This document shows positions 44,195 to 49,296 of a stretch of DNA of 64,000 bases, piece by piece. Within the stretch, counting starts at the first letter, position 1. Each line of letters starts with the position of its first letter. A model generated the notes under the pieces. The model saw only the letters and a program-made list of their open reading frames with translations, made no database searches and was not told the DNA's origin. Source of the stretch: Erysipelotrichaceae bacterium (lineage in GTDB: Bacteria > Bacillota_I > Bacilli_A > Erysipelotrichales > Erysipelotrichaceae); assembly GCA_015058955.1 (NCBI GenBank), contig SVBJ01000004.1:29382-93381 (forward strand), written 5' to 3'. The translations under genes were made by a program, and so were the position numbers.

Positions 44195-44506
44195 ATGAGA
44201 TCGGATGAAGAAAGAATTCTGCTGCTTCATCGGAAAGCACAGAAGCTACATTATCAGAAAATGACGAGAACCTTTGGTGCTGTAACAGCGTGTCTGCTGA
44301 TTGCGCTGGTAACAGTGATCGTTAAGGTTGACATACCGCTTCAATCGCTTACCGGCAACGGTCTTGCTGCATCTTCCCTGCTGGGAGAAGAGGCGGGCGG
44401 TTACGTACTGGTTGCGGTGATCTCGTTTGTGGCAGCGGTATGCCTGACGGTGTATTGCATAAAAAGAAGGAACAGAAAAACCTGGGAGGATAAGGAGAAT
44501 CTATGA
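44195..44506 (+). CDS. Paralogue of the 112-aa anti-sigma-like 2-TM protein
   Basis: MRSDEERILLLHRKAQKLHYQ with the same 2-TM layout. Its stop overlaps the next start (ATGA at 44503-44506). Confidence 0.55.
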   Translation: MRSDEERILLLHRKAQKLHYQKMTRTFGAVTACLLIALVTVIVKVDIPLQSLTGNGLAASSLLGEEAGGYVLVAVISFVAAVCLTVYCIKRRNRKTWEDKENL

Positions 44507-47500: not shown

Positions 47501-49296
47501 GCAATCCGTCAACTGAAAACAGAGAGGTAGGAGAATACACTCTTTACCTGGATGAAAGGGATGGCAGTCTGAAAGAAATTGCCATGTTAGCACCTTATAC
47601 GACAGAATACATTTTCAAGGATCTTGATGGACGTGATGCATATTCCTTCATGATCAGAGCCAGAAAAGATGTCAATGACAGCTTAGGAGGCATTGATTCC
47701 AACAGAGCCTATCTGTATCTGGGTGCACCGGCAATCCATTCCATTGAGCTGATTTCATCTGATCAGTCAAAGGATACCTACAAGCTGATCCATACCGACG
47801 GTACGATCACTGAATTTGTGGTTCGTCACGGCATCGGCATCATTGGCATTGAAAAGATATCATCCAGTGCAGACGGACTTACTGATACATATAAGATCAC
47901 CTTTACAGACGGAACCAGCATGGAATTCAATGTCACTAACGGCAGAAATGGTAAGGAAATCGAGTTAAGAGTCTTTACCGTTGAACTGTCAGGCAAGAAG
48001 ATAATCCAGTGGCACTATGTCGGTGAAACAGAATGGAGAGACCTTGTTGAAGTAAGTGACGTTGCCTTCATCGAAGGCAGAAAAGTAGAACTGCGCATTT
48101 CTGACGGCTACATTCAGTGGCAGTACGAAGGTGATGACACCTGGACCAATTTACTGGCTCTCAGTGAACTGAAGGGCGATAAGGGTGATAAGGGCAATGG
48201 CATAGAATCAATAGTAAAGAAAGGCTCATCTGAAGATGGCCTGATTGATACCTACACAATCACATATTCTGACGGTACAACCAGTGAATTCACGGTAACT
48301 AACGGTAAGGATGGTAAAGACGGAAAAGACGGTTTATCTGCTTATGAACTTGCGATCAAGAACAATCTGTTTACAGGCAGTGAGGCCGAATGGATCGCCT
48401 CACTGGTCGGTAACGGCATCGGCATTGAGAAAATTGAAAAGACCGGTACTTCTGAAGACGGTCTGACAGATAATTACGTCATAGTCTTTACCGATGGCAG
48501 TTCATATCCGTTTACTGTTACCAACGGTGCCAAGGGTGATCAGGGCAATGGAATTGTCTCCATTGAAAAGTCATCCACTTCTGAAGATGGTCTGACTGAT
48601 GTCTATACGATCACATATTCCGACGGAACAAAGACAACGTTTAATGTTGCCAATGGCAAAGACGGCAGTGACGGTGCTGACGGAAAGTCTGCTTATGAAA
48701 TTGCCGTAGAGAATGGCTTTAAGGGAACGGTAGCAGAATGGATCGCCTCACTTAACGGTATCAGCGTAGTTAACACTCAGATAAATGATAAGGGCAATCT
48801 GATCGTGACCATGTCTGACGGATCAACCGTTGATGCCGGTAAGGTAAACGGTAATGACGGTGTCGGCATCAGAGAAACCAAACTCAATGAAAAGGGAGAA
48901 CTCATCGTTACTCTCACTAACGGCGATTCCTTCAACCTGGGTGTCATCGTCGGTGCTGCCGGAAGAAACGGTACGAATGGCCAGAATGGCGTTAACGGCC
49001 AGGACGGTAAGGACGGTGTCGATGGCAAGGATGGCAAAGACGGAAAAGATGGAGCTGACGGTAAGGACGGAGCCGGAATAAGCGGTATTAAAATCGATGA
49101 AAACGGTAACCTGATCGTCAATCTGACAGACGGCACGGTAATCAATGCCGGCAGTGTCGTAAACAGTAATCCTGCACCTGCCAATTCTGTTCCTTGGTGG
49201 ATGTTGGCCTGGAACGGTGCCTTAACGGCCGGTTTGGGAGGTGTCAGCTATGGATATATTTCCCAGAAAAAGGCTGCTAAAAAGAAAGAAGACTGA
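44503..49296 (+). CDS. Giant (1597 aa) tail-anchored surface protein: FG-GAP propeller-like head, unknown beta-rich domain, Fn3, tail-fibre-like repeats, collagen-like triple-helix segment
   Basis: Signal peptide (aa 1-36, …VVHA/EE). Ca-loop motifs GDYDKDGKDS, GDLNGDGIDD, GDINGDGIDE, GNFDGNEEG. Fn3-like NIKLSWSNPS…YSFMIRARK. Repeats xGIxxIEKxxxSEDGLTDxYxIxYSDGTxxxFxVxNG. GXY x14. C-terminal TM followed by KKAAKKKED. No LPXTG. Confidence 0.9.
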   Translation: MKKGSTFLKRGIIAILMLSMMFTGVFSAFTGSVVHAEEDEDNTGKAIYEQVEAMGNRNPRDWGSDKDPFGYGKDVPFYLNQQQELLILKSKGVSGGNNMKSYDTFKSGNINYPFNGAKSTWDKNINGKYTLSFIRSVAFDPSGSGRKDHVAYIGIYSKENNDPDDNPPLIQIWVMDKNGRTSDRIDITDAVWMCDSYTYNNRNMWDFNAMNFIDITAGDYDKDGKDSLVVWACGTKPTLREVACTVKSSGISLSIRSGDGYPDDDGSLFLKPYTHKTGDEMVYNRIHGAIDTGDLNGDGIDDLVVLSYVNRVKDELRNKVTEYYLPNLAVSYGVAGSSTAIVRGENAVRHVYACWSDGYEWREAPAAAGLAVGDINGDGIDEAVVAGFFHEIKGILGEAVNKPYNILDPEKLVVSIHGKDLRQLLVQRDLPTNEWTRGAAGYGGLFLKDSTEGDHSWQQTGVETVAINGKGRPEHIFINGTLYTVNGSKLSAVYTGDYFKKADKGMDGMPTEETYIRSMAVGNFDGNEEGYEQIAYVIGGADHDNVGNAKYTQGMMGGIYKKDGAVSQTAVDYYSTDPDVMADNYYPSSSSSCELKDVLSYELTAWDTDSDGLRVKYIGKSFNYTDPTVMAVLQAPPYFEELKGAMTGYETAYTITTSYSYATGEGKSTSFSIGAELEVEAEVVKLNAELSYATSWEKTFTDELTTSDEYTFKAIGEDQVVLYRTPVTSYTYQVEVNGNFSDANTTTLSFPGIPSKALMSLKDYNAFVEYYNAENQRRAEREGLSGEVPKMKKINDQYLGNEGDPFGYMQDTDDHSNVTILQTTPNSFEVGSSSTGYAWSQEHSASEEETMEHGFNFGFSMMFQLRSPVGHTGVGLAVKTSLEYMESTSVSETNAKGKGISCEVGNMDPESLEEMNVSKVTANQYGFSYQLVTWPSGIKSIENLEDWEHDEDEPSTKTVDVPIYGYLLSGTKAGAPMVNDLYGEFVKDDSNAINIKLSWSNPSTENREVGEYTLYLDERDGSLKEIAMLAPYTTEYIFKDLDGRDAYSFMIRARKDVNDSLGGIDSNRAYLYLGAPAIHSIELISSDQSKDTYKLIHTDGTITEFVVRHGIGIIGIEKISSSADGLTDTYKITFTDGTSMEFNVTNGRNGKEIELRVFTVELSGKKIIQWHYVGETEWRDLVEVSDVAFIEGRKVELRISDGYIQWQYEGDDTWTNLLALSELKGDKGDKGNGIESIVKKGSSEDGLIDTYTITYSDGTTSEFTVTNGKDGKDGKDGLSAYELAIKNNLFTGSEAEWIASLVGNGIGIEKIEKTGTSEDGLTDNYVIVFTDGSSYPFTVTNGAKGDQGNGIVSIEKSSTSEDGLTDVYTITYSDGTKTTFNVANGKDGSDGADGKSAYEIAVENGFKGTVAEWIASLNGISVVNTQINDKGNLIVTMSDGSTVDAGKVNGNDGVGIRETKLNEKGELIVTLTNGDSFNLGVIVGAAGRNGTNGQNGVNGQDGKDGVDGKDGKDGKDGADGKDGAGISGIKIDENGNLIVNLTDGTVINAGSVVNSNPAPANSVPWWMLAWNGALTAGLGGVSYGYISQKKAAKKKED
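47734..48690 (+). repeat. In-frame ~40-45-aa tail-fibre-like modules (at least 5 copies) with two SAYE(L/I)A…AEWIASL linkers
   Basis: IEKISSSADGLTDTYKITFTDGTSMEFNVTNG, IVKKGSSEDGLIDTYTITYSDGTTSEFTVTNG, IEKTGTSEDGLTDNYVIVFTDGSSYPFTVTNG, IEKSSTSEDGLTDVYTITYSDGTKTTFNVANG. Confidence 0.75.
48952..49077 (+). repeat. Collagen-like Gly-X-Y repeat (14 triplets), coding
   Basis: GAAGRNGTNGQNGVNGQDGKDGVDGKDGKDGKDGADGKDGAG, read directly in frame. Confidence 0.9.

Follow-up and report, generated by a model that had tools for sequence, protein, structure and literature searches.

Architecture of a gene for a putative giant surface protein

We analyzed a 64,000-nucleotide stretch of DNA from an Erysipelotrichaceae bacterium (GenBank assembly GCA_015058955.1, contig SVBJ01000004.1, positions 29,382 to 93,381 of the forward strand), hereafter called the window, whose coordinates are used throughout unless another locus is named. 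The subject of this study is a gene at 44503-49296 for a protein of 1597 amino acids (aa), hereafter the giant protein, and the cassette of regulatory and membrane protein genes that precedes it. An earlier note, made from the sequence alone, had described the product as chimeric, with a globular head that contains a propeller, a stalk like those of collagen and phage-fiber proteins, and a C-terminal membrane anchor. This core reading is upheld by our analysis, and every feature listed in the note was found where it had been placed. These are a signal peptide at 44503-44610 (aa 1-36), at least four Ca-loop FG-GAP-type motifs at about 45150-46340 (confirmed by motif scan), a ~350-aa beta-rich region without assignment (aa ~634-975, with no Pfam match in 13 proteins), and a fibronectin type III (Fn3)-like domain at aa 980-1073 (above the Pfam cutoff, with 26.6 versus 25 bits). 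They continue with at least five repeat modules accompanied by SAYE linkers and short GXY runs (we found five collagen-flanked surface repeat [CFSR] modules, two linkers, and four short runs), fourteen GXY triplets at exactly 48952-49077, and a single C-terminal transmembrane segment (49189-49260) with a KKAAKKKED tail and no LPXTG (all by motif scan). The gene, the parts of its product, and the terminator that follows are listed below.

44503-49296, plus strand: gene for the giant, putative surface protein, ATG start, 1597-aa translation
44503-44610 (aa 1-36), plus strand: Sec-type signal peptide with a KK/KR n-region, a hydrophobic core, and a VHA/EE cleavage-type site
44611-46401 (aa 37-633), plus strand: conserved N-terminal segment and 7-8-bladed FG-GAP-type beta-propeller, from structure prediction, Ca-loop motifs, and sub-threshold Pfam matches
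46402-47427 (aa 634-975, ~340 aa), plus strand: "two-hairpin" domain behind the propeller, from structure prediction
46447-46644 (aa 649-714), plus strand: long amphipathic beta-hairpin 1, predicted strands 94-126 and 129-159 of the domain model
47002-47217 (aa 834-905), plus strand: long amphipathic beta-hairpin 2, predicted strands 279-311 and 318-350 of the domain model
47440-47721 (aa 980-1073), plus strand: Fn3 domain, from Pfam
47734-48657, plus strand: first part of the stalk, with five CFSR modules, two IQW modules, short GXY runs, and the first SAYE linker, from Pfam CFSR and the motif map
47953-48174 (aa 1151-1224), plus strand: the two IQW modules, IQWxYxGxxxW, from the motif map
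48337-48405 (aa 1279-1301), plus strand: first SAYE...AEWIASL linker, from the motif map
48688-48753 (aa 1396-1417), plus strand: second SAYE...AEWIASL linker, from the motif map
48781-48942 (aa 1427-1446 and 1461-1480), plus strand: two IxIDxxGxLIVTLTDG modules, from the motif map
48952-49077 (aa 1484-1525), plus strand: collagen-like run of 14 uninterrupted GXY triplets, from Pfam Collagen
49087-49152 (aa 1529-1550), plus strand: collagen C-terminal "cap" module ISGIKIDENGNLIVNLTDGTVINAG, a third I-x-I-D-x-x-G-x-L-I-V-x-L-T-D-G module
49189-49293, plus strand: C-terminal transmembrane segment (49189-49260, aa 1563-1586) and basic tail KKAAKKKED (49267-49293), with the motif SVPWW...WN..LT.G
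49321-49348, no strand assigned: hairpin with a 12-bp stem, a probable bidirectional terminator between the convergent giant gene and a holin-family gene

The open reading frame (ORF) is the longest in its part of the window. In database searches its head has relatives that grade from 94% identity for the best match down to ~30%, so it is not a chance ORF. The core of the signal peptide reaches a Kyte-Doolittle value of 2.1, a helix is predicted at aa 6-29, and the signal peptide contains no lipobox. The C-terminal transmembrane segment is rich in G, A, W, Y, and N, and no LPXTG-like motif ([LIVSN]P.T[GNSAD]) was found anywhere in the 1597 residues. Since an N-terminal signal peptide is present, a type I membrane topology is predicted for the giant protein. 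Thus, the "C-terminal tail anchor" proposed earlier stands as a C-terminal membrane-anchoring segment but not as a tail anchor in the strict sense.

The head carries a predicted FG-GAP-type propeller

To describe the head, we used an AlphaFold2 (AF2) model of aa 1-1080 built with 60 homologues, which had a predicted local distance difference test (pLDDT) score of 75 and a predicted template-modeling score of 0.60. Its secondary-structure map contains seven four-stranded blades within aa 76-575, mostly at pLDDT 80-95, and an eighth unit (strand/Ca-loop/strand) at aa 600-633, after which come a mixed domain and then the Fn3 domain. Loops of the DxDxDG type (D-x-[DN]-x-[DNS]-G) occur at aa 219, 294, 374, 523, and 607, the one at aa 523 reading N-F-D-G-N-E-E-G, and there is a weaker one at aa 122. 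The first five sit between predicted strand pairs and are putative Ca2+-binding sites.

Pfam FG-GAP (20.1 bits, cutoff of 22.1) and FG-GAP_3 (23.5 bits, cutoff of 26.9) both scored below the gathering threshold, many homologues carry precomputed, mostly faint, FG-GAP matches, and weak matches of the head to integrin alpha-V and alpha-M were returned by the family-profile search of the PDB and by Foldseek. The integrin-like FG-GAP head of the earlier note is therefore borne out in its blades and Ca loops but not at the level of the Pfam gathering scores. Sequence searches of the PDB with the giant protein and with a 60-sequence family profile yielded only Fn3 domains, a C1q collagen peptide, and the weak integrin alpha-V FG-GAP match. 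Foldseek with the whole head against the PDB returned generic propeller/Fn3 proteins (ROS1, Sevenless, DDB1, EpoR, UmbA4, and integrin alpha-M) at template-modeling scores (TM-scores) of ≤0.3, and this search, dominated by generic folds, is uninformative on the middle domain. For the Fn3 domain, the family profile matches those of titin and Dscam with an E value of 1e-12.

The head resembles integrin alpha chains and Vibrio cholerae Bap1/RbmC, which are bacterial FG-GAP matrix adhesins (PMC3161981; PMC3192720), in its multibladed propeller, in the DxDxDG Ca2+ loops at blade starts, and in a putative extracellular adhesion context. It differs from them in that its Pfam FG-GAP matches are sub-threshold, that it has only 4-6 Ca loops, and that an unrelated two-hairpin domain follows the propeller in the same chain.

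The stalk shares modules with phage tail fibers

The CFSR modules, of ~35 aa each, start at aa 1078, 1113, 1234, 1308, and 1351, and Pfam CFSR (PF19079) scores 49.7 bits for aa 1231-1420 and 30.7 bits for the whole protein, against a cutoff of 27. Short GXY runs of 3-4 triplets each, at aa 1225, 1268, 1342, and 1385, border the CFSR modules 1234-1268, 1308-1342, and 1351-1385. Pfam Collagen (PF01391) reaches 28.9 bits for the C-terminal segment alone and 24.8 bits for the whole protein (cutoff of 27.2). A DNA-level scan of the stalk for tandem repeats detected only the 9- and 18-nt periodicity of the GXY runs, so the stalk modules are not recent duplications. From the GXY and CFSR content, we infer that the stalk probably assembles as a trimer. 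The cap module stands immediately after the last GXY run in 88 of the 119 collagen-bearing members of the protein family described below, at a median of 81 aa from the C terminus, and is a candidate membrane-proximal element for trimer registration or trimerization.

The repeats had previously been associated with phage-fiber and collagen-like proteins. This association holds, as Pfam identifies them as CFSR and collagen, PHROG tail families match them, and domain searches did not assign them to a common cell-wall-binding family. Residues ~1150-1530 match 21 PHROG families, among which tail proteins are frequent, with phrog_19976 the best at an E value of 1e-30. The stalk repeat module, sought in phages, was found in tail-fiber genes: partial stalk matches of 27-40% identity were detected by tblastn in 29 phage records, and an IMG/VR scan with the stalk modules gave 40 viral loci. 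Most of the listed phage matches are annotated as tail-assembly, tail-fiber, or fiber proteins, and a few are hypothetical, structural, or unannotated. The matching phages infect Xylella, Xanthomonas, Stenotrophomonas, Erwinia, and Pseudomonas, and human fecal phage contigs match too. The CFSR modules reach 57-59% identity in two viral loci (L039 and L040), and many ORFs on viral contigs contain segments that match the SAYE linker with 57-74% identity. The 720-aa ORF with CFSR modules in L039 is located downstream of the genes for Dit and a Tal-like tail protein, with one unassigned 278-aa ORF in between; the neighbors in L040 are tail-fiber and terminase genes. The stalk and phage fibers thus have modules in common, a sharing that would fit exchange in either direction.

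The likeness to CFSR (PF19079) proteins and collagen-containing phage fibers extends to the CFSR modules, their GXY flanks, and the SAYE...AEWIASL linker, whereas the phage proteins have neither the propeller/two-hairpin head nor a signal peptide nor a membrane anchor. These differences bear on whether the giant gene is itself a phage tail-fiber gene or a prophage remnant, as its matches to PHROG, phage genomes, and IMG/VR, together with a Phage_holin_4_2-family gene downstream, could suggest. The viral matches are limited to stalk modules, and the head was unmatched in all 40 stalk-sharing viral loci and is on no viral contig. Likewise, a signal peptide with a membrane anchor is atypical of a virion protein. 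In the window, the neighbors of the giant gene are chromosomal (D-Ala-D-Ala carboxypeptidase, an acyltransferase, AddB/AddA, PRPP synthetase, MnmE, and an Opp transporter with peptidases), and these housekeeping genes rule out a prophage location. The phage-fiber or prophage explanation is thus effectively refuted. The holin-family gene (49366-49818, minus strand) encodes a protein with four transmembrane segments and is convergent with the giant gene; no further phage genes lie nearby.

Among cellular proteins, the parallel drawn earlier with streptococcal Scl holds for polarity, since Scl1/Scl2 likewise combine a signal peptide, a distal N-terminal globular region, a GXY stalk, and C-terminal anchoring. 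It does not extend to the NCBIfam SclB model (NF038329; 35.7 bits versus a cutoff of 325) or to an LPXTG anchor, in place of which the giant protein has a transmembrane helix and a basic tail. In addition, the head fold is unrelated and the collagen part is much shorter (14 triplets plus short runs), CFSR, IQW, and SAYE modules being interspersed. The parallel with the polarity of Bacillus BclA, in contrast, had to be given up. BclA is attached by its N terminus and carries a C-terminal C1q-like globular domain, so its polarity is opposite to that of the giant protein, whose globular part is N-terminal and in which Pfam and PDB searches found no C1q/TNF-like domain. The likeness to BclA lies in a putative collagen-like filament on a Firmicute surface and in GXY length polymorphism, which also occurs in relatives of the giant protein as steps of 18 aa.

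The head defines a large family of gut and rumen Firmicute proteins

A search with aa 1-1080 returned at least 368 proteins from Erysipelotrichaceae, Lachnospiraceae, and other Firmicutes. When a profile of the middle domain was compared with 1.84 billion cluster representatives, at least 1234 matched at E ≤ 1e-3 and 234 at E ≤ 1e-30, family size being counted as 50%-identity clusters. In nearly all 1234, this domain lies at residues ~550-1000, directly behind a propeller-sized N terminus, and family members that appeared to be propeller-less proved to be N-terminally truncated metagenomic fragments. Judged by these matches, the head composed of a propeller and two hairpins is a conserved hallmark of a very large gut/rumen Firmicute family. 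A genome scan placed members in metagenome-assembled genomes from rumen and gut, some of them from Erysipelotrichaceae of the duodenum of sheep and goats (97-99% identity), and among isolates they are carried by Coprococcus ammoniilyticus H1_22 (L030) and Lachnospiraceae LC2019 (L022). Our literature search found no paper on this head-defined family and none naming the CFSR repeat.

Behind the constant head, the C-terminal parts vary and comprise collagen, CFSR, LRR, cadherin, Flg_new, BNR, and SLH segments. A transmembrane segment with a basic tail terminates ~140 of 246 family members, 23 of which carry the motif S[VI]PxW...WN..LT.G. Other anchors are a VPDTG sortase signal in one member (P0044) and SLH domains in another (P0049), and further members end in basic Big-like or LRR segments. 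As far as the alignments tell, head and stalk are separable modules, and stalks and anchors are freely exchanged. A fixed head with variable stalks and anchors is what one would expect if the head is a binding module on display.

Some individual members and subfamilies have features of their own. In the conserved transmembrane motif S-[VI]-P-x-W...W-N-x-x-L-T-x-G (49174-49260 in the window), for which the subfamily borne on an integrative and conjugative element (ICE) has LLWNIAMLAL, the Asn within the helix could drive helix association (trimerization) or act as a recognition motif. Member P0178 has an extra N-terminal discoidin/CBM32-like segment before the propeller (a motif read by eye in its sequence), which is consistent with a carbohydrate-binding role of the head. 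At locus L004, a ~30%-identical collagen-type member of the P0085 subfamily (8001-12218 of that locus) lies between two similar sets of conjugation genes encoding an M23 peptidase, DUF3846, a TraG-like ATPase, PrgI, and TrbL. Surface adhesins are common as cargo of conjugative elements, and this member might serve in mating as an adhesin carried by an ICE. In the P0085 subfamily, dozens of metagenomic variants (P0039-P0120) are nearly identical but differ in length by exact 18-aa steps (1333, 1351, ... 1477 aa), which correspond to copy-number variation of the six-triplet GXY unit GEKGDKGDQGEQGIQGVQ and represent a strain-level polymorphism of collagen length. At locus L037, the member is SLH anchored, has a full cassette, and is flanked by TraG-like/CHAP-peptidase conjugation genes at 1-3093 on one side and by a Tad/Flp-pilus-like cluster (RcpC and T2SSE ATPase) at 13937-17641 on the other, another link of the family to mobile and adhesion loci.

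An undescribed domain with two predicted long hairpins

The middle domain gave no Pfam match in the giant protein or in 12 homologues (13 isolated domains, E ≤ 10) and has no PDB sequence relative, whether queried with the giant protein or with the 60-sequence profile. Because sequence and profile searches find no relative, we call the domain undescribed. In the full-head model, aa 657-707 and 842-896 had a pLDDT of ~25. When aa 556-985 were modeled alone with 101 sequences (AF2, pLDDT 76), these segments became two hairpins with ~33 residues per strand, made of aa 649-681 and 684-714 for hairpin 1 and of aa 834-866 and 873-905 for hairpin 2, with high confidence at the bases and low confidence at the tips. 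In the family alignment, both hairpins show a strict alternation of hydrophobic and polar residues throughout, and the length of their tips varies. Within the 1080-aa head, the four hairpin arms rank 1, 2, 3, and 5 for beta-amphipathicity; the top windows (1.75) lay no higher than the shuffle maxima (1.88 ± 0.21), which makes the ranking purely descriptive.

Foldseek with the middle domain against the PDB matched secretins (BfpB, InvG, GspD, PilQ, and pIV; E = 6e-6 to 4e-4) and next aerolysin, parasporin-2, Sip, and Cry23 (E of ~1e-2), all at TM-scores of ~0.1-0.2; no other folds in the PDB were matched, and only spurious low-TM matches were found in the viral BFVD. Paired, very long amphipathic beta-hairpins are what the modeled domain has in common with secretins and aerolysin-type toxins, a likeness of shape that goes with no sequence or profile similarity. 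The resemblance seen in the model is thus one of paired long-hairpin geometry, not homology.

We considered two roles for the hairpins. They might make the head a contact-dependent membrane-inserting device, in which they would refold into a beta-barrel in a target membrane, with 4 strands per chain and 12 or more per trimer, while the propeller would provide recognition and the stalk reach. Several properties point this way: the two segments of ~66-72 aa keep their strict alternation family-wide with variable tip lengths, their arms lead the amphipathicity ranking, they are disordered in the full-head model but form strands of ~33 residues when the domain is modeled alone, the family alignment has flanks rich in Ser/Thr, and the sole fold matches are formers of oligomeric beta-barrels. 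However, the TM-scores speak for local hairpin geometry rather than homology, and no MACPF, aerolysin, or ETX match was found with Pfam, ETX_MTX2 reaching an E value of 0.29 in 1 of the 13 isolated domains. Single-window amphipathicity stays within the shuffle maxima, and any surface beta-sheet alternates likewise. No immunity gene is evident, and the position at the head-stalk junction suits a trimerization neck at least equally. We therefore regard membrane insertion as unlikely.

Such a neck, in which six intertwined hairpins of three chains would form a purely structural trimerization element in a protein that is an adhesin or spacer, is possible, and we hold it as a serious though tentative alternative. 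The domain sits between the head and a stalk of phage-fiber modules, and the hydrophobic face of the hairpins is rich in small residues (A, G, and V). Moreover, intertwined fiber segments are expected to look low-confidence and isolated in models of a monomer, which is how the hairpins appear in the monomeric AF2 models. Members with presumably nontrimeric stalks (LRR, cadherin, and SLH) keep the hairpins all the same, which argues against a neck.

An ECF sigma factor/PrsW cassette precedes the giant gene

The genes upstream of the giant gene encode an extracytoplasmic function (ECF) sigma factor, a PrsW-family protease, and three further membrane proteins. The features of this region are as follows.

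41908-42522, plus strand: ECF-type sigma-70 family sigma factor, first gene of the cassette (Pfam Sigma70_r2 and Sigma70_r4_2)
42509-42847, plus strand: small1, 112 aa, with a cytoplasmic N-terminal helix MRTNEERIRLMHQKA and two transmembrane segments; overlaps the sigma factor gene by 14 nt
42831-43466, plus strand: 211-aa polytopic membrane protein of unassigned family, a conserved cassette member
43453-44073, plus strand: PrsW-family glutamic-type intramembrane protease (Pfam PrsW-protease, 55.8 bits; cutoff of 23.5)
44102-44128, plus strand: terminator-like hairpin and T-run, AACCGGATTTTCCGGTT then TTTTTGTTTT, at the end of the sigma-to-PrsW unit
44134-44162, plus strand: candidate ECF sigma factor-dependent promoter, GGGGAAT-N13-CGTATCTAT, in the spacer between the PrsW and small2 genes
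44195-44506, plus strand: small2, 103 aa, MRSDEERILLLHRKA, with two transmembrane segments; paralogue of small1 (BLASTP, E = 5e-11)

The cassette thus consists of six genes, namely, sigma, small1, the 211-aa protein, PrsW, and, after the terminator, small2 and the giant gene in last position. We found this order conserved in family loci L001-L003, L005-L014, L022, L034, and L037 and rearranged in L015. Across cassette-bearing loci, the giant proteins range from 99% to ~30% identity and the flanking genes are unrelated; with different flanking genes in every genome, the cassette behaves as a self-contained island. The terminator-like hairpin divides it into two transcription units, and equivalent hairpins are readable at the same place in L001, L002, L006, and L007. 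The stop codon of small2 overlaps the start of the giant gene (ATGA), an overlap kept in L001, L003, and L037. Our literature search found no paper on such an ECF/PrsW cassette.

The sigma factor scores 68.2 bits with NCBIfam sigma70-ECF (cutoff of 42.9), and its orthologues occupy the same position in L001-L003, L005-L015, L022, L034, and L037. Its true start may lie ~20 codons downstream, as the orthologues have 184 aa. Because small1 directly follows the sigma factor gene and has a conserved set of orthologues, it is a candidate anti-sigma factor. Two orthologous subfamilies are visible in the small1/small2 alignment, and a profile of the small proteins with two transmembrane segments gave only chance transmembrane matches in the PDB. 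The 211-aa protein has no Pfam or NCBIfam match and its profile search of the PDB was empty; the invariant positions in cassette loci are W53, P64, W74, N124, and W169-T-x-S-C173. That it might be a degenerate PrsW paralogue was rejected by hhalign (probability of 0.1%). In the PrsW-family protein, the motifs EExxK and HxxxN are intact (EELMK at aa 70 and HGIYN at aa 170), and an identical NCBI protein is titled [quoted passage not shown] It is not the equivalog of Bacillus subtilis PrsW (29.7 bits versus 225 in NCBIfam). L002 has a second, separate PrsW-family gene (20396-21124 of that locus) ~7 kb downstream of the cassette on the same contig, which indicates that these genomes contain several PrsW paralogues.

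The promoter-like motif, with the consensus GGGGAAT-N13-YGTATCTAT across loci, is the only match with ≤2 mismatches in the 64-kb window (0.03 expected). In each of L001, L002, L005, L006, L008, L009, and L011, it is found exactly once, at an equivalent position and in the same orientation. L007 has a close variant, and L003 and L015 have another, co-varying one (GGTGCGTAGTTT...TTTGTACCTATA). A CGTA core in the -10 element is typical of ECF promoters, such as those of B. subtilis sigmaW. The motif is consistent with a sigma factor-dependent promoter of the unit formed by small2 and the giant gene. Upstream of the sigma operon in L001 and L002, housekeeping-type extended -10-like sequences can be read by eye. 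An Rfam scan of the window gave no matches.

The cassette resembles the sigmaW-RsiW-PrsW system in having an ECF sigma factor with regions 2 and 4, a PrsW protein with EExxK/HxxxN motifs, and a membrane protein encoded just after the sigma factor. It differs in that the anti-sigma candidate is a protein of ~110 aa with two transmembrane segments and no zinc-binding anti-sigma domain, that the cassette has two additional members, the 211-aa membrane protein and a further small paralogue, that the protease is not a PrsW equivalog, and that the regulon appears to consist of one operon with a giant surface protein.

Two other functional links between the giant protein and the cassette were weighed. 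The giant protein might be the input sensor of the sigma cascade, ligand binding by the fiber or a mechanical load on it being relayed through its transmembrane segment to small2, the 211-aa protein, and PrsW, so that the sigma factor would be activated and the fiber would induce itself. This would fit the strict coupling of small2 to the giant gene by the conserved stop/start overlap, the paralogy of small2 with the candidate anti-sigma protein, and the conserved polar motif WN..LT.G in the transmembrane segment. The cassette is nevertheless kept by members that have no transmembrane segment and terminate in SLH, LRR, or Fn3 domains (L037, L009, L010, and L012), so a transmembrane relay cannot be general, and we find a sensor role distinctly improbable.

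The same loci bear on the idea that the C-terminal signal is sorted or processed by the PrsW-family protease, which would release or reattach the fiber in the manner of sortase, exosortase, or myxosortase systems. The tripartite C terminus (SVPWW motif, transmembrane segment, and basic cluster) and the nearby gene for a glutamic-type intramembrane protease could be taken in its favor, and sorting by a CPBP-type protease has precedent. Yet the same cassette accompanies members without a C-terminal transmembrane segment, which argues against PrsW acting on the anchor of the giant protein, and ICE-borne members with such a segment have no cassette. The presence of a sigma factor gene in the cassette, overlapped by small1, points to the classical role of PrsW. 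Cassettes beside SLH-, LRR-, and Fn3-ended members exclude sorting as a general explanation, and in the narrower sense it is highly improbable.

A putative inducible fibrillar adhesin

The giant protein belongs among the bacterial collagen-stalked fibrillar surface proteins, with an undescribed head domain and an ECF/PrsW cassette that is unreported. We favor the reading, to which we give a probability of roughly 55%, that it is a membrane-anchored, probably trimeric fibrillar adhesin of a ruminant-gut Firmicute and that its synthesis is induced by the ECF sigma factor. The protein would be exported by the Sec system and held in the cytoplasmic membrane by its C-terminal helix, and its trimeric, modular stalk would span the wall and keep the N-terminal head away from the cell. 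From head to membrane, this stalk would be built of Fn3, CFSR, IQW, and SAYE modules with short GXY runs, then the 14-triplet collagen helix and the cap. The head would be the functional end and would bind a ligand on another surface, such as a host or plant polymer or another cell.

Expression of the giant gene would not be constitutive. PrsW-dependent cleavage of RsiW releases sigmaW, which provides the precedent (PMC10202637), and by analogy with this system, we propose the following regulated intramembrane proteolysis. The sigma-to-PrsW unit would be transcribed separately and made constitutively, with the sigma factor held by the small membrane protein. Upon a signal, PrsW-dependent cleavage of that protein would free the sigma factor, which would then fire the single conserved promoter before small2 and the giant gene. 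Being translationally coupled to the giant gene and paralogous to the anti-sigma candidate, small2 may give feedback.

Several findings weigh against this reading. For the adhesin itself, the database names of all relatives are "hypothetical," "Fn3 domain-containing," or "LRR protein," and no experimentally studied homologue is among the relatives listed. The long amphipathic hairpins are left unexplained by a simple adhesin model, 14 triplets are short for a triple helix standing alone, and the C-terminal transmembrane segment is weakly hydrophobic (mean Kyte-Doolittle value of 0.74). On the regulatory side, searches of Pfam, NCBIfam, and the PDB gave no relative of small1, and its sequence contains no HxxxCxxC (zinc/zf-HC2) motif. 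The 13 nt between GGGGAAT and CGTATC are fewer than in classical ECF promoters unless the G-run is the -35 element. Finally, about half of the fetched family loci have no cassette (the more distant L004, L016-L021, and L023-L033), so it is not obligatory for function. Near some of the cassette-less members, other regulators occur: at L004, the place of the sigma cassette beside the family gene is taken by a histidine kinase and a LytTR response regulator, L036 has a LuxR/GerE-type regulator, and L038 has none. A variant that joins the sigma/PrsW switch to membrane attack, in which firing of the switch would deploy a stalk-mounted, contact-dependent membrane-inserting head module, appears quite doubtful to us.

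Gut and rumen Firmicutes (Erysipelotrichaceae, Lachnospiraceae, Oscillospiraceae, Anaerobutyricum, and Coprococcus) are major commensals whose surface structures are poorly known. The family adds putative surface proteins of 1200-3000 aa with a fixed two-domain head, half of which has no Pfam model or solved relative. The exchange of stalks and anchors includes phage tail-fiber modules, and the family is also present on conjugative elements. The cassette is a compact case of an ECF sigma factor with an apparent regulon of one giant surface protein, and it offers an unorthodox minimal anti-sigma candidate, its paralogue, and a PrsW protease. Should the head bind ligands of the host or of microbes, the giant protein would be a candidate colonization or aggregation factor. 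Should the hairpins enter membranes instead, it would be a new kind of antagonism device. It would then be a counterpart, tethered to the surface of Gram-positive cells, of pore-forming systems or of contact-dependent antagonism, present in >1000 gut Firmicute protein clusters.

Other loci in the window

Elsewhere in the window, three loci on the plus strand stand out. The region 3637-17309 looks like a peptide-utilization island, in which five peptidase genes in a row (S9, M20, M29, M24-like, and C69) come after an Opp-type oligopeptide ABC transporter. A 413-aa protein encoded at 24308-25549 consists of ~150 N-terminal residues of an ECF-type sigma factor (regions 2 and 4) and a ~260-aa extension with no Pfam match, and it may be a sigma factor fused to a regulatory or anti-sigma domain. 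An 834-aa protein encoded at 59790-62294 has MORN repeats at its N terminus and, in addition, two modules of the AAA+ ATPase type (AAA and AAA_lid_6), an arrangement that is unusual in bacteria.

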